DNA of 45,517 bases from Acidimicrobiaceae bacterium (lineage in GTDB: Bacteria > Actinomycetota > Acidimicrobiia > Acidimicrobiales > MedAcidi-G1). Where the stretch lies: the NCBI GenBank assembly GCA_002727895.1, contig PBUO01000057.1, forward strand, positions 18,157 through 63,673, read 5' to 3'. Below the pieces are notes generated by a model. It did no database searches and had not been told where the DNA came from. It saw only the letters and a program-made list of their open reading frames with translations. Made by a program: the position numbers and the translations under genes. Below, piece by piece: positions 6,771 to 37,438 of the stretch; position 1 is the stretch's first letter; each line of letters starts with the position of its first letter.

Positions 6771-7759
6771 GATGAACCCACGCTGGCCAACCGGTCCTGG
6801 ATGCTCCAGACAAGTTCCAGCGCGGCAAGGGCCTGCCGGCCGTCGACCTCGCAGGGATGGTCACCCCGAACGGCGCCCGCAAAGTGCTCGAGTTGGGCCA
6901 CCAGCGGCTCGGCCCGACGGACGAAGACCCGACGGGTCTCCACATCCAGTGCGTAACGGCCGTCGAAGCCTTCTTCCCCAACGTCACCAATCCTCCCTTG
7001 ACGGAAGATCAGGAGTTCCTGGCTCGGATAGTCCACGGTCAAGAAGCGGTCCGCAGTGGTCACTTCGAGTTGTCGCACCTGGTTCTGGGTGATCCGACTC
7101 GCCGTTAGCGACGCTAGGCGATTCCCACCAAATCCCAGGAGGGCCGTCACGTGGTCCGAGCCGTGGGGACCTTCAACCGCCCGGGCCTCTATCCCGGCGA
7201 CGTCAGTGCCCATCAGATAGAGGACAACGTCGATGTCGTGGACCATCAGGTCCATCACCACGTCGATGTCGCTTACCCGGGCGCTCACCGCGCTCATGCG
7301 GCGGGCGTTGACGACTAGCACCTGCTCACCCTCCACCAACTCTCGAAGTTGCCGGACCGCCGGATTAAACCTCTCGACGTGACCTACCTGGAGCACGACT
7401 CCGGCGTTCTCGGCCTCGGCGATCAGGATTCCCGCCTCGTCCCGGGTGGGGGTAAGGGGCTTCTCAATCAGGCAGTGGACCCCCCGGGACATGAGCTCCT
7501 GACCCGTCTGGAGGTGGTGACCCGTCGGAACGGCGACCACCGCAGCGTCCACCTCCGGCAGGTCTTCGATCGAAGCAAAGGGCAGGCATCCGTGGGCCTC
7601 AGCCACGGCTGCACGATTGGTCTCGTCTGGGTCGACGACGGCCACCAGATGGACGTCCTTCATCGAGGCGAGGCACCTGGCGTGGTTACGTCCCATGTGC
7701 CCGACGCCCACGACCGCTATGCGGACCGGATCAACCACGATTGGCTCCCCGGTCCACAC
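6767..7759 (-). CDS. Gfo/Idh/MocA-family NAD-dependent oxidoreductase (WbpB/WlbA-like sugar 3-dehydrogenase)
   Basis: 330-aa ORF with the Rossmann motif IAVVGVGHMGRNH and the EKP motif CLIEKPL. It is adjacent to WbpD-like and WbpE-like genes. An alternative GTG start at 7738 would reduce the overlap with the upstream gene from 29 to 8 nt. Confidence 0.8.
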   Translation of the reverse strand: MWTGEPIVVDPVRIAVVGVGHMGRNHARCLASMKDVHLVAVVDPDETNRAAVAEAHGCLPFASIEDLPEVDAAVVAVPTGHHLQTGQELMSRGVHCLIEKPLTPTRDEAGILIAEAENAGVVLQVGHVERFNPAVRQLRELVEGEQVLVVNARRMSAVSARVSDIDVVMDLMVHDIDVVLYLMGTDVAGIEARAVEGPHGSDHVTALLGFGGNRLASLTASRITQNQVRQLEVTTADRFLTVDYPSQELLIFRQGRIGDVGEEGFDGRYALDVETRRVFVRRAEPLVAQLEHFAGAVRGDHPCEVDGRQALAALELVWSIQDRLASVGSS

Positions 7760-8240
7760 CCTCTTCTCCCCGATGGACGATCCGGCCCGGATTGCCCACT
7801 ACCAGCGCTCCTGGTGGCACATCAGCGAGGATCACCGATCCGGCACCGACCATGGCCCCGGCACCAATCACCACCCCGCAAACGATTGTCGAGTTAGCAC
7901 CGATGGACGCGCCATCTTCGACCACAGTGGACTTCACTTCCCAGTCCCCCGCGGCGCGGGGGTACAGGTCGTTGGTGAAAGTAACGGCCGGCCCCACGAA
8001 CACCTCATCACCGAGGGTCACGCCGTGGTAAACGTTGACGCCGTTCTGGATCTTGCACCGGGCACCGATGACCACTCCGTGGTCGACGTAGCATCCCTGT
8101 CCGATCGTCGTCCCCGAGCCGATCCGGACTCGCTCCCGGACCTTCGTCCAGTCCCAGACTTGACAGCCCGCCCCCAGATCCGCCTCAGGCGAGACCTCCG
8201 CCCTGGCGTCGATGTATGTCGGGTTGGAATCGCTGCTCAT
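7731..8240 (-). CDS. Hexapeptide-repeat N-acetyltransferase (WbpD/WlbB-like)
   Basis: The track ORF 7731..8315 is trimmed to the ATG at 8240 (MSSDSNPTYID...), 16 nt below the upstream stop. It has a left-handed beta-helix repeat run (IGSGTTIGQGCYVDHGVVIGARCKIQNGVNVYHGVTLGDEVFVGP). Confidence 0.8.
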   Translation of the reverse strand: MSSDSNPTYIDARAEVSPEADLGAGCQVWDWTKVRERVRIGSGTTIGQGCYVDHGVVIGARCKIQNGVNVYHGVTLGDEVFVGPAVTFTNDLYPRAAGDWEVKSTVVEDGASIGANSTIVCGVVIGAGAMVGAGSVILADVPPGALVVGNPGRIVHRGEEGVDRGANRG

Positions 8241-8256
8241 GGTCACTGCCTCGGCC

Positions 8257-9372
8257 TCAACTCGAGTCAAGAACCGTTCGAAGGGCCTCGACCACCCGGA
8301 CCTGGTCTGTTTCACCGAGGTGGGGATGCATCGGGAGGCTAACCACGCGCCCAGTAATCCGCTCGGTCACCGGCGCACCGTCTGGCACCACCGGCGCCGA
8401 CGAGTACGCAGAGGAGCGGTGCAGGGGCTGCGGATAGAAAACAGCCGTCGGCACCCCCGCTTCCGCTAGTGCCTGCCGGATCGCCTCTCGACCGTCTACC
8501 CGAATGGTGTACTGAGCCCAGACTGACCTGCAGCCATCGGCCACCACTGGGGTTGCCACGCCATCGCTGGCGATTAGCTCGGTATACCTCGCAGCCACCT
8601 CCTGACGGAGGTCCACCTCATGGTCGAATACCTCGAGCTTCACCAGGAGGACAGCAGCTTGGATGGTGTCAAGCCGTCCCGTGAGGCCTACCCGCGCGTG
8701 GTCATACCGGTTGACCCCCTCTCCATGCACCCTGACTGATCGCAAGACCTCGGCCAGTTCGTCATCGTCACAGAAGATCGCGCCCCCGTCTCCGTAGCAC
8801 CCAAGGGGCTTCGCCGGGTAGAAGGAAGTCGTCGCAGCCAGACCGTCGGCGAGGCTGCTACGGCCGTCCCGCTCCGCGCCGAACGACTGGGCGGCATCGA
8901 CCAGGACCCAGGCGCCGAGATCGGCGACCACCGCCTCCAGCGTCGGCGTGGGCGCTGGGTGGCCGAAGAGGTCAACGGCAATGACACCGACCGGATCCGG
9001 CCCCTCGAGCCGCCAGGCCTCGGCGACCGATAACGGATCCAAGGTGTACGTGATCGGGTCGACGTCGGCGAACACCGGATCGGCACCGACCAGCCGGACT
9101 GCCTCGGCGGTCGCCACGAAAGTGAAGTCGGGGACCACCACCCGGTCGCCGGGACCCACGCCCTTCGCCATCAGGAACATCTGCAGAGCGTCGGTGCCCG
9201 ACGCACAGGAGATGCAGTGTCGCCTCCCCACCATGTCGGCGAGCGTCGATTCGAGCTCGAAGACCTCCGGACCGAGGATGTAGGCCCCGTGGTCCAGGAC
9301 CCGAGCCACGGCCTCGTCCAACCGTCCCCGAAGCGCCTCCTGCTGGGCCGCCAGATCGATGAAGGGCATCAT
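8257..9372 (-). CDS. DegT-family aminotransferase (WbpE/WlbC-like, 3-oxo-uronate aminotransferase type)
   Basis: 371-aa ORF with MPFIDLAAQQ...ILGPEV...CASGTDAL and the lysine context TTSFYPAKPLGCYGDGGA, typical of WbpE-like enzymes. ATGA overlap with the upstream stop at 9369-9372. Confidence 0.85.
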   Translation of the reverse strand: MMPFIDLAAQQEALRGRLDEAVARVLDHGAYILGPEVFELESTLADMVGRRHCISCASGTDALQMFLMAKGVGPGDRVVVPDFTFVATAEAVRLVGADPVFADVDPITYTLDPLSVAEAWRLEGPDPVGVIAVDLFGHPAPTPTLEAVVADLGAWVLVDAAQSFGAERDGRSSLADGLAATTSFYPAKPLGCYGDGGAIFCDDDELAEVLRSVRVHGEGVNRYDHARVGLTGRLDTIQAAVLLVKLEVFDHEVDLRQEVAARYTELIASDGVATPVVADGCRSVWAQYTIRVDGREAIRQALAEAGVPTAVFYPQPLHRSSAYSSAPVVPDGAPVTERITGRVVSLPMHPHLGETDQVRVVEALRTVLDSS

Positions 9373-10337
9373 GCGGTCGATCCCATCCTCTGGTGCTCGG
9401 CCCGCCAGGCGATCAACTCCCGCAGGCCGTCCTCGAGTTCTGCGGACGCCGTGAACCCCAGGTCGCGACGGGCGGCCTCCGGGTCACCGATCCGGTTGCG
9501 GACGAAGGACGCTTCATCGGGAAGGAACTGGACCTCGACGTCCTGGCCGGTGAGCCTGATGAGGTGGTTCGCCACCTCGGAGATCGAGGTCTTAACCCCC
9601 GTGCAGACGTTGTAGTACCGGTCGACGACGCTGGCTTCCATGGCAGCGAGGTTCGCCCGGGCGCAGTCCCGAACCGACACGAAGTCGTAAGACTGCGTTC
9701 CGTCTCCGAAGACCACTGGGGGCTCGCCCCGGTCGAGCCGGTCCAGCATCTTCATGATGACGGCGACGTAGGCGCCCTTGTAGTCCTGTCGTGGGCCGTA
9801 GACGTTGAAATATCGGAGCCCCACGGTCTCCAGCCCATCGCGGTGGTGGAACGAGGTCAGAAGAGCCTCGCCAGCGATCTTGGTCGCCCCGTACACAGTC
9901 GTGTTTGCGAACGGGTGGTCCTCCGCCATGGGCTCTGTAACTGCATCCCCATAAACCGAAGCCGACGAAGAGAAGACCACCCGCTCCACCCCGTGTCGGA
10001 CACAGGCCTCGAACAGGTTGAAACTCCCGGTGACGTTGACCTCGAAACCCTCACTCGGATTCTCGTGGCAGTGCAGGAGCCACAGCGCCGCGAAGTGGAA
10101 GACGCCGTCGACCCCAGAAAGGACCGGGTCGAGGTCCGACGGATCGCGGAGGTCGCCCTGGACGATCCGGACCCGGTTGTCGGCCAGAGCGGCAGTCAGG
10201 TTGTCCGTGGAGCCTCGAATCAGATTGTCGAAGACCACCACCTCTGCGACACCTGCCGCCAACAAAAGGTCGACGGTGTGGGAACCGATCAGTCCGGCGC
10301 CTCCCACGACGACGAACCGGCCTCCCTCCAACCTCAT
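9369..10337 (-). CDS. NAD-dependent epimerase/dehydratase (extended SDR)
   Basis: 322-aa ORF with VVGGAGLIGSH (GxxGxxG), SSASVYG and a YGATK catalytic motif. ATGA overlap at 10334-10337. Confidence 0.8.
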   Translation of the reverse strand: MRLEGGRFVVVGGAGLIGSHTVDLLLAAGVAEVVVFDNLIRGSTDNLTAALADNRVRIVQGDLRDPSDLDPVLSGVDGVFHFAALWLLHCHENPSEGFEVNVTGSFNLFEACVRHGVERVVFSSSASVYGDAVTEPMAEDHPFANTTVYGATKIAGEALLTSFHHRDGLETVGLRYFNVYGPRQDYKGAYVAVIMKMLDRLDRGEPPVVFGDGTQSYDFVSVRDCARANLAAMEASVVDRYYNVCTGVKTSISEVANHLIRLTGQDVEVQFLPDEASFVRNRIGDPEAARRDLGFTASAELEDGLRELIAWRAEHQRMGSTA

Positions 10338-12202
10338 ACCTCTTCTCCTCTCACTTCCGCCGCTTCGCCACCGAGACCACGCTCGTCCCCTTGAGCCATG
10401 GCCCGGAAGGTGGGGCTCGTTCCCAACAACTCGTCGTAGGTCCCTATCGCCACGACCCGACCCTCGACCATCTCGAAGATCACATCACACGTCCGAAGCG
10501 TTGAGAGGCGGTGGGCGACCATGAGGATGGTCGGTCCTCCACCCCAACCAGTAATGGACTCCATCAGCCGCCGTTCGGTGGTGTTATCGAGAGCGCTCGT
10601 GGCCTCGTCCAGAATGAGGATGTCCGCGTCCTTGTAGAGGGCCCGGGCGATCCCGATGCGCTGCCGTTGGCCCCCGGAGAGCCGGGCCCCACGCTCGCCC
10701 ACCAGGGTGTCATAGCCCTCCTCCTCCGCATCGACGAAGGAGTCGACGAGAGCCCGTCGAGCCGCCGCGCGGACCCGTTCACCGTCGATCTGATCAGGGG
10801 AGACGCCGAAGGCGACGTTCTCGGCGACCGTCGCGTCTGCCAGGAAGATGTGTTGTGGCACGTGGGCAAGGTTCCGCTGCCAGCTTCGGACCGACGACCG
10901 CCCCAGCCTGACCCCATCGACCTCCACCGATCCGGAGGACGGTTCGAGCAGGCCCATCAAGAGGTCCAGCAACGTCGTCTTCCCGCAGCCGGTCGGGCCG
11001 ACGAACCCCACCGTCGATCCGGCATCGATCGCCAGGTCGATTCCATCGACCACCCATGGCCCGTCATCGGAGTACCGGAACCTGAGGTCGCGGCACCGGA
11101 TCCCCGACGTCATCTTCACCTGCTCCACCGCATCCGGTCCACCAGTGTCCGGCATCGGCTGGTCGAGCAACTCGAGCGCATCGGACAGGACCGCCCTGTT
11201 CCCGAGGACAGTCGTCACCCCGTAATAGCAATGCTGGTAAACGGGGAGGAGCCGTTGGCCGCCGATGGCCAGCGCTCCCAGGGTCGGCAGATCGTCCACC
11301 ACGCCACCTGTCCGACCGTTCAGGTAGATGGCCAGCAGAGCGATGAGGAGCATGGTCAAACCGTCCATCAGCACCCTCGGGGAGGTCTGCATCACGCTGT
11401 TCGATCCTTGTGCCATGCGGAGGGGTCTATTGGATCGACGGAACTGTTCGAGGAACACTTCCTGCGAGCCGTCGATCACCACGTCCCGAATCCCACCGAT
11501 GCCCTCGTGGATCGCCTTGATGACACGCGTCTGCTCAGCAGCGATCCGCTCGCCGTTCCGTTCGAGGCGGCGTCGGGCCATCCAGGTGATCACGACATAG
11601 CTCCCACCGAATCCGACGACGGCGACTGCCGCCACGATCGGGTCCATCGCTATGAGCGCTGCCAGGACGGTGATCGCGGTGAGAGCAGAACCGAGGGCCA
11701 TTTGGAGGGGGAAGAACATCCCAGAGATCACACCATCCACCTTCTGGACGACGCCGCTGACCACCGCACTGCTGTTCCGGCCAAGATGAACCGCGTACGG
11801 CTGGCGCAAGGTCCTCTCGTACGCGTCAGCGCTTAGGTCGACACCGGCGACTACGGAGAGTCGGACCGAGGCCCACATGACCATCAAGCGAAGTCCGGCA
11901 GCGACAAGCGCTCCGACGATGAAGACCGCGGCAAGAGGGGCGAGGAGGTCCTCTGGATCCGTGATTCCGAGCCAGTTGGCAAAGCTGGCAACGACGCCGA
12001 AGCGGAACACCTTTTCGGGTTCCACTAGGACGGAGATGAAGGGAATGACCGCGCCGAGGGTCATCACCTCGGCCAGGGCACTCACCATCATCAGAAGGGT
12101 GACGGCAATGAACTGTCGACGTCGCCTCGGGCGAAGGTGCCTCCACAGCCTCGTCAACAGTTCGGCGAGGCCAAGCCGCCTCTGCAGATCGGCTTCTGTC
12201 AC
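10334..12202 (-). CDS. ABC exporter, fused permease + ATPase (MsbA/PglK-type half transporter)
   Basis: 622-aa ORF with a hydrophobic N-terminal half. It has Walker A GPTGCGKTT, the signature LSGGQRQR, Walker B ILILDEATSALD and the H-loop VAHRLST. GTGA overlap at 12199-12202. Confidence 0.9.
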   Translation of the reverse strand: MTEADLQRRLGLAELLTRLWRHLRPRRRRQFIAVTLLMMVSALAEVMTLGAVIPFISVLVEPEKVFRFGVVASFANWLGITDPEDLLAPLAAVFIVGALVAAGLRLMVMWASVRLSVVAGVDLSADAYERTLRQPYAVHLGRNSSAVVSGVVQKVDGVISGMFFPLQMALGSALTAITVLAALIAMDPIVAAVAVVGFGGSYVVITWMARRRLERNGERIAAEQTRVIKAIHEGIGGIRDVVIDGSQEVFLEQFRRSNRPLRMAQGSNSVMQTSPRVLMDGLTMLLIALLAIYLNGRTGGVVDDLPTLGALAIGGQRLLPVYQHCYYGVTTVLGNRAVLSDALELLDQPMPDTGGPDAVEQVKMTSGIRCRDLRFRYSDDGPWVVDGIDLAIDAGSTVGFVGPTGCGKTTLLDLLMGLLEPSSGSVEVDGVRLGRSSVRSWQRNLAHVPQHIFLADATVAENVAFGVSPDQIDGERVRAAARRALVDSFVDAEEEGYDTLVGERGARLSGGQRQRIGIARALYKDADILILDEATSALDNTTERRLMESITGWGGGPTILMVAHRLSTLRTCDVIFEMVEGRVVAIGTYDELLGTSPTFRAMAQGDERGLGGEAAEVRGEEV

Positions 12203-13956
12203 CGGGAACCCGCCGCCTTGATCTCCATGGCAACGCGACCGACCGTGTCAGGAGACCGTCGGCAGAATCGTTTCGAAAAGGAAGCCACCGCGTCGACCAC
12301 GTCCTCCCCCGTCCACCAGGCCTCCACGTCGTTCCAGATCGAATTGACATGGGCGGCCGCAGAAATCGAATCCTCGTGGAAGACCCCCACCTCGGTAAGG
12401 CGATCAAACCAGGGCCGCGACTCCGGGAGGATGCCCCACCGGTCCGGATCCCAGAACATCACCGTCGGCACCCCAAGGTAGATCGATTCGAGGAACGTCG
12501 TCCCATTCGTGGTCGTGACATAGATCCGAGCCTCCGAAAGGAGTTCAAGGATGCTGCGTCGGCCATCGTCCACATCGACGTCGGGAAAGCGATCCGCCCA
12601 TCGTTCCAACACCGACCAGTGGACGTCGTGCTGAGAGCCCCTGACCCTGAGGGCCGAACGGACGTCGGGATCGAGAGACTCCACGAAGGAGTAGATGTCA
12701 TCGACATAGTCGAGGAACTCGCTGGACAGGGCGGACGACGAGAGGCTGCCGACCTGGGCGGTCTCGTTGCCAAGGACCAGCACGGCGCTCATGCCCCGAC
12801 CCTCTGGACGCTCCGGCAGCACCGGGTCCTTCAGCGTTCCCACGGGCCTGATCCTCGGGTCGTCCGGAGCGTCCCAGCCCCAACTGAGGAAGCGGTCGGC
12901 GACGGACAACTGGTGATGGTGGAAGAACGACCACCCAATTCCGGCATGTCCACCGTGCTGGCCGATCACCAACTTTGCTCCCGCCTCGACCCGCTCGGCG
13001 CACCAAGCCTTGAAGAGGTCGTCGTAGAGGTGCGAGGCACTGGTGAAGACAACGGACGTCGAGGTCGGCCACGACATCTCCTCGGCCTGCGCCACGAGGT
13101 CTCGGTAACCCTCGAGATACGCCGTCGGAAGGAACTCGGCGAGGAGGACGCCCAGGCATTCGGCGAAGGGATCACCGTCGGCGACCTTGAGTCGCCAGCC
13201 ACGCTCGGCCGGGTCGGGATCCACCCCGCGTACGGGACCCACCCGGTAGAGCCGCGGAACCTGGCGAAGTCGGAGGTGGAGGGCCAGTTCCTCCCGAACC
13301 GACCGCAGGCAGGGATTGACCACCATCACGTCCGACGACCGGGCCAGCGGGGAAAGGATGCGGAGCGCGAAATCGACCAACCGGGCTCGGAGGCCCTCGT
13401 GTGATGGCTCCTCGTCCACCATCAGGCCACCGAGATGACCGGCTGACGCGAGCCGGCGAGGAACGTCGGTCGTGGCCTCCAGGACCCGCGCAACCACATG
13501 ATGGTTCCACTGATGACTGTTCGACAACCAGAGATGGTCCACCATGTCGACCGGAACCCGGGCGTCCGGAAGGTCCTCGAGGACGATGGTGGAATCGACG
13601 GCTCCGGAAGACACCGCCATCTGGACCTGGGACCACCGGTCGAAAAGGGCCTGCGTGAAGAATCCCAGCCATGGCCCGACGAGGATCCTCCAGTACCGGA
13701 CTTCGTGGTCCACCCGGTGTCTGGCGTTCAAGAGGGCCGAGATGGCAACCAGAAGGTCCTCGTGGAGACTCCATAGCCGTTCTCGGTCCATCTCGACCTT
13801 GGCCCGGTCGGCCCAATGGTAGGGCAGCACCTCGGCATCAAGTCCCACCCAGCGATCCGATGCCCGATACTCGCGGCACCACTCGCCGAGAAAGAGAATC
13901 GGCTCTCCGTCGCCCCAGGACTCCTCGATCGACGTCGACACGAGGAGCCGCCCCAT
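12199..13956 (-). CDS. Uncharacterised 585-aa protein, candidate LIC12162-family putative transferase
   Basis: Long ORF with an ATG start and first in its operon. The N-terminus LLVSTSIEESWGDGEPILFLGEWC matches, from memory, the start of the Leptospira LIC12162 family found next to nonulosonate genes. The C-terminal IYVTTTNGTTFLESIYLGVPTVMFWDP looks like a GT-B/capsule-transferase nucleotide-sugar domain. The function is not verified. Confidence 0.6.
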   Translation of the reverse strand: MGRLLVSTSIEESWGDGEPILFLGEWCREYRASDRWVGLDAEVLPYHWADRAKVEMDRERLWSLHEDLLVAISALLNARHRVDHEVRYWRILVGPWLGFFTQALFDRWSQVQMAVSSGAVDSTIVLEDLPDARVPVDMVDHLWLSNSHQWNHHVVARVLEATTDVPRRLASAGHLGGLMVDEEPSHEGLRARLVDFALRILSPLARSSDVMVVNPCLRSVREELALHLRLRQVPRLYRVGPVRGVDPDPAERGWRLKVADGDPFAECLGVLLAEFLPTAYLEGYRDLVAQAEEMSWPTSTSVVFTSASHLYDDLFKAWCAERVEAGAKLVIGQHGGHAGIGWSFFHHHQLSVADRFLSWGWDAPDDPRIRPVGTLKDPVLPERPEGRGMSAVLVLGNETAQVGSLSSSALSSEFLDYVDDIYSFVESLDPDVRSALRVRGSQHDVHWSVLERWADRFPDVDVDDGRRSILELLSEARIYVTTTNGTTFLESIYLGVPTVMFWDPDRWGILPESRPWFDRLTEVGVFHEDSISAAAHVNSIWNDVEAWWTGEDVVDAVASFSKRFCRRSPDTVGRVAMEIKAAGSR

Positions 13957-14040
13957 CGACGGGAAGACTACAGTCTGCCCGCCCGCACGATCCCGCAGGC
14001 TGGCAGCTACCAGCCCAGACAGTCGGCGACGAGGAGGCCC
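13957..14040. promoter_or_regulatory. Divergent intergenic region between the two operon starts (likely bidirectional promoter)
   Basis: 84-bp gap between the minus-strand start at 13956 and the plus-strand GTG at 14041. A GAGGAGG Shine-Dalgarno-like element lies just before 14041. No promoter hexamers could be assigned confidently. Confidence 0.35.
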
Positions 14041-14937
14041 GTGACAGGATCACCACTGGACGGCCACCGATCGACGGTCGTCGGTGCCGGCTCGATCGGC
14101 TCCCGACACCGCCGGGTCCTGGAGGACCTCGGCTCCACCGTCTCGGTGGTGAGCCGACGACCTGAAGTGGGAACCCATGCCACGATCGCCGAGGCCGTGG
14201 ACGCCACCGAGCCCGACTACGTGGTCCTGGCCACCGAGACCGAGCGGCATCTGGAATCGATCGAACGGCTGGTGGACACCGGATTCCGCGGCCGGGCGCT
14301 TCTGGAGAAGCCTGCCTTCGACGACGTCCGCCCGTTCCCCGACCTGCCCTTCGCTTCGGTGGCCGTGGGCTACCAGCTCCGGTTCCACCCTGCGGTCCAG
14401 AGACTTCGAGACGAGATCGCCGGGTCGAGGGTGTTGAGCGCACAGGTTAGGTACGGCCAGCACCTCCCCGACTGGCGACCCGGTCGGGACTACCGGTCCA
14501 CGGTGACAGCCGGTCCCGGTGGCGGAGTCCTCCTCGAACTGAGCCATGAGATCGACCTCGTGCACTGGCTTCTGGGCGCGGGAACGGCCGTCTTTGGCCG
14601 GACCCGGCGATCGGGCCTCCTGGACATCGAACGGGAGGACCTGGCCGTCGGCGTCATCGAGTTGGACACCGGTGGCCTGGTGGGTCTCGAGTTGAACGCC
14701 CTCGACCGCCGTCGGAACCGCACCATGACCGTGACGACCGCCGACCACTTCTTCCACCTCGACCTGGTCGCCGGCCGACTGGAAAGGGATGACGAGGTGC
14801 TAGTTCCCGGACCGGTCGAGCGCGACGAGTTGTTCGCCGACTTGCACCTCGCGACGATTGCCGGAGCGCCCGGGCCATGCACACCTGACGAGGCCCTCGA
14901 AGTCCTCCGGACGATCCGGGGACTCCGCTCCACCTGA
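14041..14937 (+). CDS. Gfo/Idh/MocA-family oxidoreductase
   Basis: The track ORF 13816..14937 is trimmed to the in-frame GTG at 14041, because the upstream part overlaps the divergent gene. It has the Rossmann motif VVGAGSIGSRH and the EKP motif LLEKPAF. Confidence 0.75.
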   Translation: MTGSPLDGHRSTVVGAGSIGSRHRRVLEDLGSTVSVVSRRPEVGTHATIAEAVDATEPDYVVLATETERHLESIERLVDTGFRGRALLEKPAFDDVRPFPDLPFASVAVGYQLRFHPAVQRLRDEIAGSRVLSAQVRYGQHLPDWRPGRDYRSTVTAGPGGGVLLELSHEIDLVHWLLGAGTAVFGRTRRSGLLDIEREDLAVGVIELDTGGLVGLELNALDRRRNRTMTVTTADHFFHLDLVAGRLERDDEVLVPGPVERDELFADLHLATIAGAPGPCTPDEALEVLRTIRGLRST

Positions 14938-15025
14938 CCGGCCGCGCACCGCACCGCACCGGTAATCTGCGGGGATGGCCCGGTGGGCCACCTGACAGAG
15001 GACGAGGACAGGAGGTGGTCGTCCC

Positions 15026-15814
15026 ATGGCGACGGTTCCCGACTTCCGGTCCCTCGAGGACCGGGTGGTACTTATCACCGGCGGTGCCGGCCACATCGGT
15101 TCGACCCTCGCCGAGGCATTCCTGGCGGTGGGGAGCCGGGTGGCGACCGTTGACCTGACGGACCCGGTCGGCCCCCCGACCGACGCCGGACCCGACCGGT
15201 ACCAGCACCTACCCGTCGACCTATCCCGGGACGGCGATGCCGTAATGGCGTGCGACGGCGTCCTCAACGCGTTCGGTCGCCTGGACACGATCGTGGCCAC
15301 GGCATCTTGGATGGGCACGGCCACCACCCCCGGCTGGAACGTCCCGTTCGACGAGCAGGACGAGCGGCTCTGGGCCGAGGTTCTCCAGGTGGGCGTCACA
15401 GCGAACTTCACCCTGATGAAACGGGCCTTCCCGCACCTCGCAGCCAACGGTGGCGGCTCGGTGGTCCTGCTCAGTTCCATCTACGGCTTCTGCGGACCAC
15501 AGCCCGCCATGTACGAGGACACGGGTATCAACAACATCGCCGGCTATGCGGCCAGCAAGGGTGCCCTCGTCCAACTGGCCCGGTGGTTGGCCACGACCAT
15601 GGCACCGGACGTCCGGGTCAACGCCGTCTCGCCCGGCGGCCTCTTCCGAGACCAGCGACCTCCATTCGAGGAGCGGTACAGCGAACGGACGCCACTTGGA
15701 CGAATGGCCACTGAGGAGGATCTGGTTGGCCCTGTGCTCTTCCTGGCATCGGATCTCTCCCGCTACATCACTGGGCACGACCTCGTCGTAGACGGTGGCT
15801 TCTCCACGTGGTGA
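15026..15814 (+). CDS. Classical short-chain dehydrogenase/reductase (PtmA-like position)
   Basis: 262-aa ORF with ITGGAGHIGS (TGxxxGxG) and a YAASK catalytic motif. The ATG is preceded by AGGAGG. It lies upstream of the CMP-nonulosonate synthetase, as in ptmA-ptmB arrangements. Confidence 0.8.
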   Translation: MATVPDFRSLEDRVVLITGGAGHIGSTLAEAFLAVGSRVATVDLTDPVGPPTDAGPDRYQHLPVDLSRDGDAVMACDGVLNAFGRLDTIVATASWMGTATTPGWNVPFDEQDERLWAEVLQVGVTANFTLMKRAFPHLAANGGGSVVLLSSIYGFCGPQPAMYEDTGINNIAGYAASKGALVQLARWLATTMAPDVRVNAVSPGGLFRDQRPPFEERYSERTPLGRMATEEDLVGPVLFLASDLSRYITGHDLVVDGGFSTW

Positions 15815-16809
15815 CCGGCGCCAGGAGAACCGTCGCTGTGGTCGGTGGCGGCCAACTCGGCTCCCGATACCTCCAGGGCCTTGCGGCGTGTCGGAATCCA
15901 TTGGACGTCGCTGTAGTCGATCCCGACCCCAGTTCGCTGGATGTCTGTCGGAGCCGCTGGACACAGGCCGGTGGAGCGGAATCGGACCACCGACTGTCCC
16001 TCACCGGATCGGCCGTCAACCTTGCGTCTCAGTTGGACCTGGCCATCATCTCCACCACCGCCGGAATCCGGACGACGGTTGTCGAGGAACTCTCGGGTCA
16101 TGCCCGAGTCGGCTCCTGGTTGCTCGAGAAGGTACTGGCCCAGGGCCTCACCGAACTCGACCGCATCGCGGTAGCAGTGGGCGAGGACGCGGCCTGGGTC
16201 AACACTTGGGCGCGGACGACCCAATGGTTTCGACAGATTGGTGCACACCTCGGCTCCGGGCCCCATGCCATCGAGGTCACCGGCGGCTCCTGGGGCCTCG
16301 CTTGCAACGCCATCCACTTCCTTGACCTAGTCGGATGGTGGACCGGTGAAGGACTTGACATCGTAGATGCATCGAAACTGGACCGGCCATGGCTCGCCGC
16401 GAGGAGGACGGACCACGTCGAGCTCTCCGGCCAGCTGATGGCACGCTTCGACGGTGGTTCGACCGTCGGCCTCTCTTCGTCACCGCCTTCCAGCGCCGGA
16501 GACCCAGCTGGAATGGACGCGCCAGAATTGATGACTATTCGGTCGCCAGTCGGCACCTGGCGAATCGAGGACCCAATGTCGGAAACTTTGGGACTCGCTA
16601 CTGACGATGCTGGGCTGCGGATCGAGGGTCGTATCGAGTACCAGAGCGAGCGGACGCCGGGACTGGTGGACGCCATCCTCGATACGGGAAAATGTGACCT
16701 CCCCGATCTCGCGTCATCCATCGACCTACACCGTCGATTCCTCACCGGACTACTCGAGGCCCGACCGTTTCTCGAAGGTGTTCCCGAGGATCGGGTCCCG
16801 ATCACGTGA
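15808..16809 (+). CDS. Divergent Gfo/Idh/MocA-like Rossmann protein
   Basis: 333-aa ORF with VAVVGGGQLGSRYL (GxGxxG) and a degenerate EKP motif (LLEKVL). The start is the GTG at 15808 or 15811, with GTGA overlapping the SDR stop at 15811-15814. Confidence 0.6.
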   Translation: MVTGARRTVAVVGGGQLGSRYLQGLAACRNPLDVAVVDPDPSSLDVCRSRWTQAGGAESDHRLSLTGSAVNLASQLDLAIISTTAGIRTTVVEELSGHARVGSWLLEKVLAQGLTELDRIAVAVGEDAAWVNTWARTTQWFRQIGAHLGSGPHAIEVTGGSWGLACNAIHFLDLVGWWTGEGLDIVDASKLDRPWLAARRTDHVELSGQLMARFDGGSTVGLSSSPPSSAGDPAGMDAPELMTIRSPVGTWRIEDPMSETLGLATDDAGLRIEGRIEYQSERTPGLVDAILDTGKCDLPDLASSIDLHRRFLTGLLEARPFLEGVPEDRVPIT

Positions 16810-17747
16810 GCGGCCGACCTCTCTGGCTGGTCGGAGCCGGTCCGATGGCTCAGGCCTACTCCAGGGTGCTCGACGACTTAAGCGTCGATCATCAGGTCAT
16901 AGGCCGCGGCACGGGTTCCGCCACGGCGTTCGAATCTGCCACTGGACATGCCGTTAGGCCCGGTGGGGTGGAGCGAGCGATCGGCGACTCGTCGGTGCCG
17001 GACACGGCGATCGTCGCCGTGTCTGTCGATCAGTTGGCCCAGACCGCCAGTCAGCTCCTCCGGGCTGGGGTCCGCCGAATCCTCCTTGAAAAGCCCGCCG
17101 GGCTCTCCTGCGATGAAGTCCGCCCAGTCCGCGCAGATGCCTCGAATGGGGCTGTGGTGGTGGCCTACAACCGCCGCCATTACGCCTCGGTCCGGGCTGC
17201 GCGGGCAGCCATCGCTGAGGACGGCGGAGTCTGCAGCTTCTCGTTCGAGGTCACCGAATGGCCCCATGCCACTGAGCCGACCCAAGTCGGTCCGACTATC
17301 CGACGTCGATGGTTCATCGCCCAGACCTCCCATGTGGTGGACCTCGCGTTCCACCTCGGAGGCCGCCCGGCGAACTGGACATGCCACTCAGCCGGATCCC
17401 TGACCTGGCACCCAGAGTCGGCCCGTTACAGCGGCGCGGGGACGACCATCGCCGGTGCCACCTTCGGCTACCACGGCGATTGGGAAGCACCGGGGCGTTG
17501 GGCGGTCGAGATCCTCACCCGTCATCGACGGCTCATCCTCCGACCCCTGGAGGAACTTCGCTCCATTCCCATGGGTTCCCACGAGGTCGAGATCGTCACC
17601 CTTGATGACGACCTCGACCGGACGTTCAAGCCAGGCGTCCACCGACAGGCAACCGCATTCCTGGACGGCGACGACTCAGTGGCCTGCCTCCTCGACGAGC
17701 ACATGGCCAACATGGAGATCTTCGAGCGTATGGCGGGCTACCGATGA
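16806..17747 (+). CDS. Gfo/Idh/MocA-like oxidoreductase
   Basis: 313-aa ORF with LWLVGAGPMAQAY (GxGxxA) and ILLEKPAG. GTGA overlap at 16806-16809. Confidence 0.65.
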   Translation: MSGRPLWLVGAGPMAQAYSRVLDDLSVDHQVIGRGTGSATAFESATGHAVRPGGVERAIGDSSVPDTAIVAVSVDQLAQTASQLLRAGVRRILLEKPAGLSCDEVRPVRADASNGAVVVAYNRRHYASVRAARAAIAEDGGVCSFSFEVTEWPHATEPTQVGPTIRRRWFIAQTSHVVDLAFHLGGRPANWTCHSAGSLTWHPESARYSGAGTTIAGATFGYHGDWEAPGRWAVEILTRHRRLILRPLEELRSIPMGSHEVEIVTLDDDLDRTFKPGVHRQATAFLDGDDSVACLLDEHMANMEIFERMAGYR

Positions 17748-18484
17748 CGGGGACCGTCGCACTGATCCCCGCCCGGTCGGGTTCCAAGGGCGTGCCCGCG
17801 AAGAACATCCGCCCTCTCGGTGGCCGTCCTCTCCTCGCCTGGACGATCGCTGCCGCTCTCAGATCCGCTTCGATTGACCGCGTAATCGTCTCCACCGACT
17901 CTGAGGAGTACGCCGAATTGGCCCTTGACCACGGCGCCGAGGTCCCGTTTCTCCGGCCGGCGGAACTTGCTAGCGACCACTCGCGCGATGTCGAGTTCAT
18001 CCTCCACGCCCTCGACTGGCTCATCAAAAACGAAGGTGTCGAACCCGAACTCCTGGTCCACCTTAGGCCCACCACTCCGTTCCGGTCCCCGACCGACCTC
18101 GACGCCGCGGTAGACCTAATGCGGACGGCGACCAGCGAAACCAACCAGACGCCCTCCGCTGTGCGATCGGTCCATGAAATGTCGACCACCGCCTACAAGT
18201 GCATGGAGATCGATGGCGGCCTGCTGCGCCAAGTGGGCGCTCCCACCACGGCTCTGGACCGGGCTAACGACCCCCGGCAGGATTTCCCGGTCACCTACCT
18301 TGCCAACGGATACGTGGACGTTCTCTCCACCGCATTCGTCCGTGCGACCGGTCTCCTCCATGGCGATCGCGTGGTTCCGTTCTTGACACCCCTCGCGCTG
18401 GAGGTCGACACCGAAGCTGACTTCGAGCTCCTCCAACGCCACTTCGATCTACACCCCGAATTGGCTGACCAACTGTTCGGCTGA
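17744..18484 (+). CDS. Acylneuraminate cytidylyltransferase family (CMP-nonulosonate synthetase, NeuA/LegF/PseF-like)
   Basis: 246-aa ORF with the signature ALIPARSGSKGVPAKNIRPLGGRPLLAWTI. ATGA overlap at 17744-17747. Confidence 0.9.
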   Translation: MTGTVALIPARSGSKGVPAKNIRPLGGRPLLAWTIAAALRSASIDRVIVSTDSEEYAELALDHGAEVPFLRPAELASDHSRDVEFILHALDWLIKNEGVEPELLVHLRPTTPFRSPTDLDAAVDLMRTATSETNQTPSAVRSVHEMSTTAYKCMEIDGGLLRQVGAPTTALDRANDPRQDFPVTYLANGYVDVLSTAFVRATGLLHGDRVVPFLTPLALEVDTEADFELLQRHFDLHPELADQLFG

Positions 18485-18623
18485 ACCACCGCATCTCGCT
18501 GGGAGCGAGCCTCCTACCCGGAGGGAGGTCGGTACCCTGTCGGAACGGGCAGGGCGACCGGGAGTCGGCCCACCAAGGTCTGACCACCGAATCGATGCCA
18601 GAGCGGAGAGCGAACGAGTAACT
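18485..18623 (+). promoter_or_regulatory. Structured 139-nt intra-operon spacer (possible leader or processing element)
   Basis: This is the only long gap inside the otherwise overlapping plus-strand operon. It holds four consecutive GC-rich inverted repeats: ctcgct-ggg-agcgag at 18495-18509, cctcc...ggagg at 18510-18528, ccctg...caggg at 18535-18554, and cgac-cggga-gtcg at 18555-18567. No U-tract follows any of them. Confidence 0.25.
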
Positions 18624-20870
18624 ATGAACCTCGACCGCGAGATGTCCCGCTACCTCGTCCTTGACGAGGAGTCGGTCCGGGTGGCCTTGGAGAAGATCGA
18701 CCGGAACGATGAGGGAGTTGCCGTCTGCGTCGACACCAGCGGCTTGCTGGTCGGGGTTCTAACCGACGGAGACCTTCGACGATGGCTAGTTGGCCAACCC
18801 TTGCCCAACCTCGACCAGCCTGTGGGCGGGATCGTCAACACCAGTCCGAGGACGGCCCGAATCGACGACGACGCCCGGCGGATCGAGTCCCGATTCGACC
18901 AGGACGTGCACCTGATCCCGCTGCTCGACGACGATGGCCGGTGCGTGGCCATCGCGCGACCGCGCTCTGCTCTCTATGCCCTAGGCGACCGAACGGTCGG
19001 CCCGGGCGCCCCCTGCCTCCTAATCGCGGAGATCGGCATCAACCACAACGGCAGTCTCGACCTTGCCTTCCGGATGATCGACGAGGCGGTCGAGGCCGGA
19101 GCGGACTGCGTCAAGTTCCAACTCCGTGACCTGTCATCCCTTTACTCCAACGCAGGAGATGCCTCCGACCACCGAGAAGACCTTGGCTCCCAGTACACCC
19201 TCGACCTGCTGACCCGCCACCAACTGACGGTCGACGAGATGTACCGGGCGCTGGACCACTGTCGGGACAGCGGGGTGATCCCACTGGTGACACCCTGGGA
19301 CGAGGCCAGCATGGAACGCCTGGAAGAATACGGAATCGACGGCTACAAGACCGCGTCGGCCGACTTCACAAACCACCCGTTCCTGCGCCGTCTAGCACGC
19401 ACCGGCAAACCCCTGATCTGTTCGACTGGAATGACCTCTCACAGCGAGGTCCGGGAGTCGGTCGACCTACTCATCAGCGAGGGCTCGCAGTTCGCCCTTC
19501 TCCACTGCAACTCCACGTATCCAGCACCATTCAAGGATGTCAACCTCCGATACATGGAGACCCTCCGTGAGATCGGCGGATGTCCCACTGGCTACTCCAG
19601 CCACGATCGGGGTATCAACGTCTGCGTCGCCGCCGTCGCCCTAGGTGCCGACATCATCGAGAAGCACTTCACGCTGGATAAGGAGATGGAGGGGAACGAC
19701 CACCGCGTGAGCCTCCTACCCGGCGAATTTGCGGCCCTTGTGACGGGGATCCGGGAGGTAGAGGAGGCGAAGGGGTCTCCGGGCGGACGGTCGCTGACCC
19801 AGGGCGAGATGATGAATCGGGAGTCTCTAGGCAAGAGCCTGATGGTGAATATGTATCTTGAGCCGGGGACGGTCATCGAGGAGCACATGCTCGATATCCG
19901 AAGTCCGGGAAGGGGCCTTCAGCCCAACCGCCTCGCCGAGGTCGTCGGCCTCCCGGCCCGTCGACCACTTAAACCCGGCGACGTCCTTTACCCCTCGGAC
20001 GTCAGCGGGGCCTCGGCAGTCGCGAGGGAGTACTCGTTTGATCGCCCCATGGGTATCCCCGTCCGCTACCACGATCTTGCAGACCTGGAGCCGCTGTCCA
20101 ACTTCGATTTCCTAGAGTTCCACCTGAGCTACAAGGACCTCGACGTCGACGAATCGCTCTTCTTCGACCAGCCACTGGACCTCGACCTCGTGGTCCACTC
20201 CCCCGACCTGTTCGAAGGTGACCACCTCCTCGACCTGAGTTCGCCCGACCCCGACTACCGGGCAGTGTCGATGCGGCACCTCCAGCGGGTAGTCGACCTC
20301 ACCCGCCGACTCGCTCCCCGTTTCACCAGAGCAGACCGACCACTGGTAGTGGTGAGCGTGGGCGGCTTCACCCAACACGCTCCAGCCGACGAGAACGAGA
20401 AGGAGGAGCGCTACCGACGCGTGGCCGACGCCCTCGCCACCCTCGACCTTGACGGAGTCGAGGTTTTGCCCCAGACCATGCCTCCATTCCCCTGGTACTT
20501 CGGCGGGCAGAGGTTCATGAACCTTTTCATCGATCCGAAGGAAATAGCCGCCTTCTCCAGGGAACATGGCTACCGGGTCTGCTTCGACACCTCCCACTCG
20601 AAGTTGGCCTGCACCCACCACCACTGGTCGTTCAGCGAATTCGTCCAGACGGTGGCTCCCCACACCGCTCACCTCCATCTTGGCGACGCCGCAGGAGTCG
20701 ACGGCGAGGGACTCCAAGTCATGGACGGAGACATCGACTGGCGGATGCTCAGCACCGAACTCCGAAAGTTGGCTCCGGATGCCTCGTTCATCCCCGAAAT
20801 CTGGCAGGGCCACAAGAACAGCGGCCAGGGCTTCTGGCGAGCCCTCGAACTTCTGGAGCCCTACTTCTGA
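18624..20870 (+). CDS. Multidomain nonulosonate synthase: CBS pair + NeuB-type synthase + SAF + xylose-isomerase-like TIM barrel
   Basis: 748-aa uninterrupted ORF. The domains by residue range are:
- aa ~8-115: CBS-like.
- aa ~128-385: NeuB motifs LLIAEIGINHNG, CVKFQ, GYSSHD, EKHFTLD.
- aa ~398-460: SAF-like.
- aa ~470-748: AP_endonuc_2/xylose-isomerase-like pattern (CFDTSHS, HLHLGDA, IPEIW). Confidence 0.85.
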   Translation: MNLDREMSRYLVLDEESVRVALEKIDRNDEGVAVCVDTSGLLVGVLTDGDLRRWLVGQPLPNLDQPVGGIVNTSPRTARIDDDARRIESRFDQDVHLIPLLDDDGRCVAIARPRSALYALGDRTVGPGAPCLLIAEIGINHNGSLDLAFRMIDEAVEAGADCVKFQLRDLSSLYSNAGDASDHREDLGSQYTLDLLTRHQLTVDEMYRALDHCRDSGVIPLVTPWDEASMERLEEYGIDGYKTASADFTNHPFLRRLARTGKPLICSTGMTSHSEVRESVDLLISEGSQFALLHCNSTYPAPFKDVNLRYMETLREIGGCPTGYSSHDRGINVCVAAVALGADIIEKHFTLDKEMEGNDHRVSLLPGEFAALVTGIREVEEAKGSPGGRSLTQGEMMNRESLGKSLMVNMYLEPGTVIEEHMLDIRSPGRGLQPNRLAEVVGLPARRPLKPGDVLYPSDVSGASAVAREYSFDRPMGIPVRYHDLADLEPLSNFDFLEFHLSYKDLDVDESLFFDQPLDLDLVVHSPDLFEGDHLLDLSSPDPDYRAVSMRHLQRVVDLTRRLAPRFTRADRPLVVVSVGGFTQHAPADENEKEERYRRVADALATLDLDGVEVLPQTMPPFPWYFGGQRFMNLFIDPKEIAAFSREHGYRVCFDTSHSKLACTHHHWSFSEFVQTVAPHTAHLHLGDAAGVDGEGLQVMDGDIDWRMLSTELRKLAPDASFIPEIWQGHKNSGQGFWRALELLEPYF

Positions 20871-22117
20871 GCCCCTAATCTGAGCCCGACAGCCCCACGG
20901 AGGTCGTGGAACCGGGCGACGAGGTCCTCCACCTCGCTGAGTTCATCGATGGCCTCGGCCGGAACCACGAGCCCGTCAGCGGTGGCGCGGCGTAGGACAG
21001 TCGCCACAGGTCCGTAGTCACCCGGCGTGGATCGACCTGAGGCCTGCCGGAGCCTCTTGGCCCCCACCGTCACTCCGGCGGGGAGAGCACCCAAGAGGGA
21101 GCGGAGGCCAGACGCTGCGGAGCCCCGCCAGGTCCGTCCCTCGGGCACGGGATCGAGGTCTTCGTAGAGCCGATGGTTGCATTTGACGAACACCTCAGCA
21201 GCGGTGCGGACCACCTCAGCGCATCCGTCAGCGTCGAGTCCGAGTCCTTCGGCGGTCGAGTTTGAAATCGTCGCGACAAAGAGGGAGCGCTGTTCCGCGA
21301 ACTCTGGGCCGGCCCACCACTCGGGGAACCAGACCATCCCCTCCTTCTCCCCCTCGGCAACGGGTTGGATCGGGTGCTCGACGGAACGGAGCCACTGGAT
21401 GGCGTCCGAACTCACGAAGTCGCCGAGGAGGTGGACCACCATCGCTTGGTGGACCTCTGCAGCGTGACCCGAGTCGTAGTCCTCGACCGAACCCCATGAC
21501 CTCCGCCACACCGGGGTGCGGAGAACCGCGTAGCAAGTGGCCATGGTGTAGTCCCGGAAGGCGAGGCGAAAGCGCTCCTCGGGATCCGCCGACCTGACCG
21601 AAAAGCCGCCCATCGAGCGATACGTCCGATGGAAAGTGAGCCTGCGAAAGCCACCCGCCGGCAAGAAGGATACGACCTGGCCCATGCAACCGATCGCCTC
21701 AGGATCCTCGGCCAGAGTAGACAGAGCCACACGGAGTCCGCTCGGCAAATGGAACTCGTCGTCGCCGAGCATCACCGCGTAGGGGGTGGTGATCATCCTC
21801 CCCGCGAGACGAAGACGGGTCGACATCGAGCCGTTGTCGTGGATGTAGGTGATCCTCGGATGCTTGATAAGGGCGGATGTCACCCGATCCGGCAGAGACA
21901 CATCGGAGCCGTCGACGATCACGACGGATGCGCTCCGTCGCGCCCAATACCGGATCAGCCGTAGCAGGTAATCCTGGCGACGGTAGGAGGGCACCACTAC
22001 GGTGAGATCGGCCAGCCCGTCCTCCTCCGGCGGGACGAAGCCGTCCATCAGGACCTCTAGACACCAGTCCTCAACGGCGCGAGTCGTCGGAGTGAAGGGT
22101 CCCGGATCCGCGATCAC
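20861..22117 (-). CDS. GT-A-fold (GT2-like) glycosyltransferase-domain protein with an uncharacterised C-terminal half
   Basis: 418-aa ORF with LTVVVPSYRRQDYLLRLIRYW...VVIVDGS and a DxD-like MLGDDEF motif. The GTG at 22117 gives a GTGA overlap with the upstream stop. Its 3' end overlaps the convergent gene by 10 nt. Confidence 0.65.
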   Translation of the reverse strand: MIADPGPFTPTTRAVEDWCLEVLMDGFVPPEEDGLADLTVVVPSYRRQDYLLRLIRYWARRSASVVIVDGSDVSLPDRVTSALIKHPRITYIHDNGSMSTRLRLAGRMITTPYAVMLGDDEFHLPSGLRVALSTLAEDPEAIGCMGQVVSFLPAGGFRRLTFHRTYRSMGGFSVRSADPEERFRLAFRDYTMATCYAVLRTPVWRRSWGSVEDYDSGHAAEVHQAMVVHLLGDFVSSDAIQWLRSVEHPIQPVAEGEKEGMVWFPEWWAGPEFAEQRSLFVATISNSTAEGLGLDADGCAEVVRTAAEVFVKCNHRLYEDLDPVPEGRTWRGSAASGLRSLLGALPAGVTVGAKRLRQASGRSTPGDYGPVATVLRRATADGLVVPAEAIDELSEVEDLVARFHDLRGAVGLRLGAQK

Positions 22118-37270: not shown

Positions 37271-37438
37271 TTCAATCTTCTAGCAGAAAGCGAAGGCACA
37301 GACGATGGCACCGCGGCCGGCCATCCCGTCCGAGGTCGCTCTGGGCCGCACGGGATAAGTTGCGGCCGTGGTCTCGAGAACCTCGTCTTGCTCCTTTGCA
37401 TCAACCGCTCGGCCCTGTCCAGAGACCGTGAGGCCTCG
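37271..37438. promoter_or_regulatory. Divergent intergenic region (likely bidirectional promoter)
   Basis: 168-bp gap between the minus-strand start at 37270 and the plus-strand ATG at 37439. It is locally less GC-rich (ttcaatcttctagcagaaagcgaagg). GAGG lies 5 nt before the ATG. A TAAGTT (TANNNT-like) hexamer is present but unverified. Confidence 0.4.

Follow-up and report, generated by a model that had tools for sequence, protein, structure and literature searches.

A putative chimeric operon for a CMP-activated nonulosonic acid in a marine Acidimicrobiales genome

Results

A six-gene block in a cell-surface glycan island

We analysed a 45,517-nucleotide stretch of DNA from an Acidimicrobiaceae bacterium (GenBank assembly GCA_002727895.1, contig PBUO01000057.1, positions 18,157 to 63,673; the window hereafter) and focused on a block of six co-directional plus-strand genes at 14041-20870, labelled A to F, that resembles a pathway for a CMP-activated nonulosonic acid. 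The source is a metagenome-assembled genome (MAG, here G000) of 1.87 Mb that is 85% complete, and, among named relatives, the nearest is a marine Acidimicrobiales MAG. The block sits inside a 45-kb cell-surface glycan island that otherwise runs on the minus strand. It encodes, in order, a Gfo/Idh/MocA oxidoreductase (A), a short-chain dehydrogenase/reductase (SDR; B), two divergent proteins of the Gfo fold (C and D), a CMP-sugar synthetase (E) and a fused synthase (F). An initial annotation of this DNA had placed six plus-strand genes here and called them the only multi-gene plus-strand block in the window. All six were recovered at the same coordinates, and the one further plus-strand gene found is a single SDR at 37388-38395.

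Adjacent genes overlap by 4-7 nt at the B/C, C/D and D/E junctions, with gaps of 88 nt before B and 139 nt before F, and A-F is a translationally coupled six-gene operon. The 84-nt region at 13957-14040, which separates A from a divergent LIC12162-family gene, carries the GAGGAGG ribosome-binding site of A; a sigma-70 consensus was looked for in this region and none was found. Promoter and terminator scans gave nothing above chance, and the 139-nt spacer ahead of F (18485-18623) showed no terminator-like site in a simple scan. With the same flanks, the A-B-C-D-E-F block was found again, at 53-81% identity, in at least 8 independent contigs of marine Acidimicrobiales.

Architecture of the fused synthase

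Gene F (18624-20870, plus strand) encodes a 748-aa protein in which Pfam and NCBIfam models recognized a CBS pair (about 18657-18947), a NeuB domain (about 19074-19778), a SAF domain (about 19836-20003) and a xylose-isomerase-like TIM barrel of the AP_endonuc_2 type (about 20103-20834). The NeuB domain (PF03102) scored 269.6 bits against a cut-off of 22.1 and the SAF domain (PF08666) 34.2 bits against 21. The protein stayed under the NCBIfam equivalog cut-offs for both TIGR03569 (NeuB_NnaB; 309.5 versus 399.65) and TIGR03586 (PseI; 216.5 versus 340.25). Its best relatives in the Protein Data Bank (PDB) are SpsE, SiaC/NeuB and PseI, and its CBS pair resembles that of KpsF/arabinose-5-phosphate isomerase.

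The barrel was modelled with a mean predicted local distance difference test score (pLDDT) of 91.6. A Foldseek search with this model placed ketose 3-epimerases on top (D-tagatose 3-epimerase and UlaE, template modelling (TM) scores of 0.6-0.65) and endonuclease IV at rank 50; TM scores of 0.55-0.67 do not separate these two groups for this barrel. Sequence and profile searches against the PDB returned only MJ1311, which is uncharacterised. The invariant residues Glu613, Asp655, His683/His685 and Glu725 agree with the Glu-Asp-His-Glu site that the epimerases have. Stand-alone barrels encoded beside short NeuB proteins were considered as a guide to the chemistry of the F barrel and set aside, as they are distant superfamily relatives (hhalign, about 6%).

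Distribution and phylogeny of F-type synthases

Proteins of the F family, about 748 aa long, occur in at least 312 species of many phyla, including cyanobacteria, Leptospira, Mycolicibacterium, Thalassobacillus and Rhizobium. We examined the neighbourhoods of 80 species loci whose synthases are 51-75% identical to F, Leptospira interrogans among them. A CMP-synthetase homologous to E is encoded no more than 10 kb from F at 60-62 of the 80 loci, as the sole frequent partner, and is often the only other nonulosonate-pathway gene nearby; the remaining neighbours include glycosyltransferases, Wzm/Wzt, methyltransferases and aminotransferases. A separate stand-alone NeuB is also present at 11 of these loci. 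A core composed of F and the LIC12162-family gene was dropped, the latter being present at 4 of the 80 loci only. Likewise, C and D were rejected as general partners of F, since they accompany it together at a single locus, that of the Acidimicrobiales relative.

The initial annotation had proposed placing the NeuB domain phylogenetically. In a maximum-likelihood tree, all fused synthases formed one clade (support 100/98) apart from the synthases of legionaminic acid (Leg) clusters. The sister group of the fused clade consists of NeuB proteins of 288-293 aa that have no SAF domain. Cassettes of this sister group (L125:6036-8790, L151:11953-15569 and L165:2334-5055) contain a SIS isomerase, a haloacid dehalogenase (HAD; Hydrolase_3) phosphatase, NeuB, sometimes a stand-alone AP_endonuc_2 protein, and a CMP-synthetase, which looks like a sugar-phosphate route in the style of 3-deoxy-D-manno-oct-2-ulosonic acid (Kdo) built on a NeuB-type synthase. 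The Kdo pathway itself uses KdsD (SIS and CBS domains), KdsA, KdsC (HAD) and KdsB, and the nearest relatives of the F synthase domain similarly keep company with SIS, HAD and CMP-synthetase genes. Unlike in the Kdo pathway, however, the synthase is of the NeuB rather than the KdsA type, and any isomerase or phosphatase role within F would fall to the xylose-isomerase-like barrel.

Two other systems bear on F. The long synthase of Leptospira interrogans (YP_002104) shares the CBS-NeuB-SAF-TIM-barrel architecture, is 52% identical to F, falls in the same clade and is paired with a CMP-synthetase. Ricaldi et al. 2012 guessed that it serves an animal-like route through phosphorylated sugars, with the C-terminal domain as the phosphatase, and they found N-acetylneuraminic acid (Neu5Ac) in Leptospira. 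The two loci differ in that F is followed in Leptospira by an aminotransferase, a CMP-synthetase and a gene resembling iron-containing alcohol dehydrogenases (Fe-ADH), whereas in the window it is combined with redox genes of the Leg type. The capsule of Serratia marcescens KL1/KL2 contains 3-deoxy-D-glycero-D-galacto-non-2-ulosonic acid (Kdn) and some Neu5Ac, which go together with neuA and a NeuB that bears an additional isomerase/epimerase domain; gas chromatography-mass spectrometry (GC-MS) identified Kdn as the capsular sialic acid, and a neuB knockout loses sialic acid (PMC9000132). The Serratia NeuB is accompanied by neuA only, unlike F.

Two arrangements of F in other taxa were also seen. 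In Leptospira, Mycolicibacterium, Gallionella and others, the genes after F encode a DegT aminotransferase, a CMP-synthetase and an Fe-ADH-type dehydrogenase (L004:10001-15207, L005:10001-15209, L065:9968-15240, L009 and L010), an order that hints at amination after condensation. The combination of F with an aminotransferase and an Fe-ADH presumably resembles the KdnA/KdnB logic for 8-amino-Kdo in Shewanella. In cyanobacteria (L014, L016, L029 and L038, around position 10001), F and the CMP-synthetase lie between genes for Wzm/Wzt, for methyltransferases of both the TylF type and class I, and for GT2 proteins. These neighbours point to a methylated ulosonic acid in a polysaccharide exported by an ABC transporter-dependent route, possibly as the chain terminator.

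Absence of a 2-epimerase from the source genome

The initial annotation had reported nothing resembling NeuC, LegG or PseG in the window, and the absence extended to the genome. Profile searches detected no Epimerase_2 (PF02350), PseG, NanE or AGE anywhere in the 85%-complete source MAG, and tblastn with two LegG-type proteins returned nothing. No ManNAc (N-acetylmannosamine) kinase was found. F is the only NeuB in this MAG, which has no stand-alone LegI. When PtmE was sought, only plain NTP-transferase domains matched, and its CBS-containing N-terminal part found nothing. As for a pseudaminic acid route, PseG is absent and the cut-offs for PseI and PseF were not reached. Among 15 F-carrying genomes surveyed, Epimerase_2 was present in 13, usually far from F. 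It was absent from Roseibium and Mycolicibacterium moriokaense, the sole informative ones.

Candidates for the early steps of legionaminic acid synthesis do exist on the minus strand. They comprise an SDR as the LegB candidate (9369-10337), an aminotransferase as the LegC candidate (8257-9372) and a NeuD-type acetyltransferase as the LegH candidate (7731-8315), scoring 145.6, 146.9 and 95.8 against cut-offs of 475, 420 and 160.8, respectively. The suggestion that scattered dehydratase, aminotransferase and acetyltransferase genes serve the pathway did not hold up well, since all remain under the Leg and Pse (pseudaminic acid) equivalog cut-offs and a UDP-2,3-diacetamido-sugar set fits them at least as well.

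A swap of synthase type within one genus

We then compared the locus with those of 18 congeners. F was found in one of them only (G014, 94% complete), which has the same block and also lacks Epimerase_2; of the 17 others, 10 carry Epimerase_2. In G005 and G013, a glycosyltransferase of the TIGR04440 type, C, D, a LegB-like protein, a stand-alone NeuB, Epimerase_2, PtmE, A, E and B are found together, A and B being 50% and 52% identical to those of the window. G000 and G014 instead have A-B-C-D-E-F, without the LegB of the congener type, the stand-alone NeuB, Epimerase_2 or PtmE. The two synthases are not close, the NeuB domain of F being 32% identical to the stand-alone NeuB of the congeners. 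The canonical Leg pathway (LegB/C/H/G/I/F and PtmE) holds C, D, A, E and B within its cluster in G005 and G013. The window has these accessory genes, and LegG, the stand-alone LegI, PtmE and the congener-type LegB are absent from it.

Across loci that contain C, Epimerase_2 accompanied F in 0 of 7 (all of a single lineage) and a stand-alone NeuB in 8 of 11. Together with the swap and the tree, these counts indicate that the missing epimerase follows the type of synthase and not the redox genes. Because A to E occur together with a LegG-type Epimerase_2, a stand-alone NeuB and PtmE in G005 and G013 and at many metagenome loci, the redox genes do not appear to be substitutes for the epimerase.

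Genes of the window's C type were also found in congeners G010 (C10:1539-2519) and G017 (C173:2181-3173), at E values of about 1e-125. No NeuB was found in these assemblies, and contig ends probably interrupt their cassettes.

A, B and E form a ptm/Ela-type trio

Gene A (14041-14937, plus strand) starts with GTG after the GAGGAGG site and encodes a 298-aa Gfo/Idh/MocA oxidoreductase matching the Pfam GFO_IDH_MocA_C3/C models. It has the Lys of the EKP motif, the His of SHEID and a VSRR fingerprint of the NADP type after beta-2. Profile searches against the PDB returned Gfo-family structures, WlbA and TM_0414 among them, with weak matches. The source names of its homologues are generic, with no PtmF or ElaA label among them; by family, size and synteny, A is PtmF/ElaA-like. 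Gene B (15026-15814, plus strand) encodes a classical SDR of 262 aa (adh_short_C2, 125.8 bits) that is probably PtmA/ElaC-like. Its best NCBIfam match, NF006619, scored 137.6 bits, under the cut-off of 255, and its best PDB match is an unnamed SDR (6uh2, 139 bits). Gene E (17744-18484, plus strand) encodes a 246-aa cytidylyltransferase, a predicted CMP-nonulosonate synthetase (CTP_transf_3, 87.7 bits), whose best PDB match is NeuA (9ftb); against PseF it scored 123.2 bits and did not reach the cut-off of 205.7.

A Gfo enzyme, a cytidylyltransferase and an SDR therefore stand in one operon beside a nonulosonate synthase. The order A-E-B beside PtmE, NeuB and Epimerase_2 recurs at other loci and agrees with published Leg clusters, such as that of Plesiomonas, which runs PtmA-LegF-PtmF-PtmE-LegH-LegI-LegG. 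In the KL49 locus of Acinetobacter baumannii, ElaB makes CMP-activated 5,7-di-N-acetyllegionaminic acid (CMP-Leg5,7Ac2); ElaA, an NADP-binding Gfo enzyme of 323 aa that has a Lys/His dyad, has been proposed to oxidize C8, and ElaC to reduce the ketone to the 8-epimer of CMP-Leg (PMC13656337). The aciABCD/aciE and epaAB modules follow a similar logic. By analogy, A, E and B may match the logic of ElaA, ElaB and ElaC, that is, C8 epimerisation of CMP-legionaminic acid. The likeness to ElaABC and to ptmF-ptmB-ptmA of Campylobacter and Plesiomonas comprises a Gfo enzyme of about 300 aa with the Lys/His dyad and an NADP fingerprint, a cytidylyltransferase and an SDR of about 260 aa, all in one operon, and it would extend to the proposed order of activation, oxidation of a side-chain hydroxyl and face-selective reduction. 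The window differs from ElaABC in that C and D are inserted between B and E, and the sugar would be supplied by the fused synthase F rather than by lgaA-F or LegB-I.

C and D are a conserved pair of divergent Gfo-fold proteins

The 333-aa protein C (15808-16809, plus strand) has no match in Pfam or NCBIfam, and its assignment to the Gfo/Idh/MocA fold comes from its structural model, Foldseek and profile-profile comparison. An AlphaFold model built with 29 homologues reached a pLDDT of 95.2, and Foldseek placed only Gfo/Idh/MocA proteins among its top 50 PDB matches (TM 0.55-0.72). Aligned with hhalign, the profiles of the C and A families matched with 96.9% probability over 257 columns, with GxGxxG, EK(V/P) and His-x-x-Asp in register. 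Invariant residues of C include EKV, in which Lys108 is kept, His170, and an Asp38 after beta-2 that is of the NAD type. The EKV motif had been taken for a degenerate EKP; its invariance across the C family, with the Lys retained, marks it as a signature and not as decay. We collected 794 homologues of C.

The 313-aa Gfo-like protein D (16806-17747, plus strand) has the EKP motif and a weak match to PF01408 (21 bits, under the cut-off of 24). It shares 32% identity with the N-terminal half of A, is also similar to WbpB-like Gfo proteins and conserves EKP, SHVVD and an invariant V-x-G-R of the NADP type. Both C and D have the Rossmann and C-terminal domains and the catalytic Lys and His of the Gfo/Idh/MocA family, and both stay under the Pfam gathering thresholds (PF01408, PF02894 and PF22725).

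D lies directly downstream of C in 50 of 63 loci and is 52-54% identical between Actinomycetota and Betaproteobacteria. Judged from these sequences, D is apparently an obligate downstream partner of C in a tight gene pair. The pair has more than 300 metagenome matches, mostly in Leg clusters, and no family model. Its typical surroundings are a stand-alone NeuB, Epimerase_2, a PtmE-like CBS-nucleotidyltransferase, an A-like Gfo protein, an E-like cytidylyltransferase and a B-like SDR. By the usual Rossmann-fold rules, the opposite cofactor fingerprints, NAD-type in C and NADP-type in D, would be those expected of an oxidase/reductase couple, and the two proteins may act as partners.

In other taxa, a TIGR04440-type glycosyltransferase is encoded directly upstream of C-D (for example L006:9091-9963 and L169:9316-10539). 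A homologue of this gene immediately precedes C in 9 loci and is present in 17 of 79; glycosyltransferase, C and D may be one functional unit.

Flanking genes

On the left of the block, divergent from A, lies a minus-strand gene (12199-13956) for a 585-aa LIC12162-family protein (TIGR04331, 417.8 bits; cut-off 225). Every related Acidimicrobiales locus has it next to the block, and its product is a candidate transferase for the activated sugar. The adjoining minus-strand gene (10334-12202), which is conserved too, encodes a fused ABC exporter of 622 aa (Pfam ABC_membrane and ABC_tran). On the right, convergent with F, a 418-aa GT2-type glycosyltransferase of the TIGR04440 family is encoded at 20861-22117 on the minus strand (84.6 bits; cut-off 70), and further right there is a heptose/thiamine diphosphate/radical S-adenosylmethionine cassette.

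The genes further left encode an SDR, two DegT aminotransferases, a Gfo protein resembling UDP-N-acetylglucosamine (UDP-GlcNAc) 3-dehydrogenase, two hexapeptide acetyltransferases and a WbuX/HisH/HisF set, none of which reaches a Leg or Pse equivalog cut-off. The last set (74-2714, minus strand) combines HisH- and HisF-like proteins with an N-acetyl sugar amidotransferase of the WbuX type (206 bits, above its cut-off), and is predicted to equip a sugar with an acetamidino or amide group. Minus-strand genes at 5649-8315 and 34471-35739 encode the UDP-GlcNAc 3-dehydrogenase-like Gfo protein and a DegT aminotransferase, along with a hexapeptide acetyltransferase and a UDP-sugar 6-dehydrogenase; together they resemble a WbpA/B/E/D-type pathway yielding a 2,3-diacetamido uronic acid, for which a WbpI-type 2-epimerase would also be missing.

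Discussion

The view that the block is a CMP-nonulosonate module of ptm/leg flavour is supported here. We read it, at a little better than even chance, as a chimeric operon in which F and E give a CMP-activated, Kdn-like nonulosonic acid that is then tailored by A and B and by C-D. F would condense phosphoenolpyruvate with a hexose-type aldose not released from a nucleotide sugar, most likely a mannose-type sugar or sugar phosphate of central metabolism, to yield a Kdn-like acid, and its metal-dependent barrel would supply an isomerase/epimerase or phosphatase step. With an aldose of this origin and a step provided by the barrel, no NeuC, LegG or PseG would be needed. E would then activate the acid to a CMP-sugar, and A and B would epimerise it by oxidising one side-chain hydroxyl to a ketone and reducing this from the opposite face. 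C-D could carry out a second such oxidation and reduction at a different carbon. Finally, attachment and export of the sugar would fall to the LIC12162-family transferase, the TIGR04440 glycosyltransferase and the ABC exporter. The predicted product is probably a non-standard nonulosonic acid. All components are of known kinds; the combination is new and the C-D pair is uncharacterised.

Several observations weigh against this reading. The 85% completeness of the MAG limits what the absence of an epimerase can mean, and the seven F-type loci without one represent one lineage rather than independent observations. Extra invariant His and Asp residues in the F barrel fit a multi-metal phosphoesterase site like that of endonuclease IV, and with these additional ligands an isomerase is not separable from a phosphatase. 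The Serratia NeuB with its extra isomerase/epimerase domain is likened to F by description, not by sequence. In Campylobacter work of 2009, PtmA and PtmF were reportedly assigned to an early hexosamine-phosphate step and not to tailoring. Moreover, the orthologues of A-D in congeners sit beside a legionaminic-type pathway, and the ElaA work stresses recognition of two N-acetyl groups, which are absent from Kdn (PMC13656337). Given these last two points, F might take a diacetamido sugar made by the products of 9369-10337, 8257-9372 and 7731-8315.

An animal-like route to Neu5Ac, which we think unlikely, would assign the same genes differently. A and B would supply a hexosamine phosphate, F would use N-acetylglucosamine-6-phosphate or ManNAc-6-phosphate with its barrel acting as 2-epimerase or Neu5Ac-9-phosphate phosphatase, E would make CMP-Neu5Ac, and C-D would modify it. 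This agrees with the phosphorylated substrates proposed for Leptospira and the Neu5Ac detected there (Ricaldi et al. 2012), with the sugar-phosphate logic (SIS, HAD) of the sister clade of F and with the Plesiomonas paper, which assigns PtmA to the opening part of the Leg pathway, where the precursor is built. The Serratia KL1/KL2 capsule speaks for both sides: it holds some Neu5Ac, but the sialic acid identified in it by GC-MS is Kdn. In addition, the SDR and Gfo folds would be odd for an amidotransferase or isomerase role, the ElaA/ElaC-type trio is now proposed in publications to act on CMP-Leg, and neither NanE and AGE nor a ManNAc kinase was found.

The initial annotation had offered a different explanation, in which the Gfo and SDR enzymes replace the hydrolysing 2-epimerase and epimerise the hexose precursor before condensation. 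Four NAD(P)-type oxidoreductases beside the synthase, with every known 2-epimerase family absent, and the presence of the NDP-hexose-acting Gfo enzymes WlbA and GnnA among the structural neighbours of C and A would be in keeping with it. However, congeners and many other taxa have A, B, C and D next to a LegG-type Epimerase_2, and most F-family loci have none of the four genes, yet have no epimerase nearby either. We give this version very little credence. What survives of the proposed redox epimerisation is that some of the four oxidoreductases may reasonably tailor the nine-carbon sugar, for which ElaA/ElaC, aci and epa are precedents; compensation for the missing epimerase does not survive, A to E co-occurring with LegG-type Epimerase_2. 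It also seems highly improbable that the product is ordinary legionaminic acid, with F as a long LegI, the flanking genes as LegB, LegC and LegH, and LegG in the unassembled 15% of the genome. The incompleteness of the MAG and the LegB/C/H-like candidates at 7731-10337 leave room for such a pathway, and Leptospira has F next to a complete Leg set. Nevertheless, G014, with its higher completeness, carries the same block and no Epimerase_2; full Leg sets that accompany F bring their own stand-alone NeuB; the LegB and LegC candidates are far under their cut-offs; and there is no PtmE, while F belongs to another clade than the Leg-cluster synthases.

The chimeric-operon reading can be taken further, to a bolder form that we hold only tentatively and consider rather doubtful. 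The F barrel would be a new kind of hexose-phosphate isomerase/2-epimerase, giving a Kdn-type acid from a central hexose phosphate. After CMP activation, A with B and a C-D heterodimer, the latter pairing oxidation by NAD with reduction by NADPH, would invert two stereocentres, so that abundant marine Acidimicrobiales would display an undescribed, non-aminated stereoisomer. If this is true, C-D would be a general, unrecognised nonulosonate epimerase pair that is also present in many legionaminic acid clusters.

Nonulosonic acids influence the recognition of bacterial surfaces by phages, grazers and immune systems, and their stereochemistry is usually predicted from gene content. The present locus shows a Leg-type tailoring set recombined with an unrelated fused synthase. 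Such recombination means that two rules, 1) no NeuC or LegG, no pathway, and 2) ptm genes imply legionaminic acid, can mislead. It also singles out C-D as an uncharacterised and probably catalytic component of nonulosonate pathways. Finally, one genus holds a natural pairwise comparison, with LegB/LegI/LegG/PtmE on one side, F on the other and the same accessory genes on both, which could reveal the function of F and its barrel.

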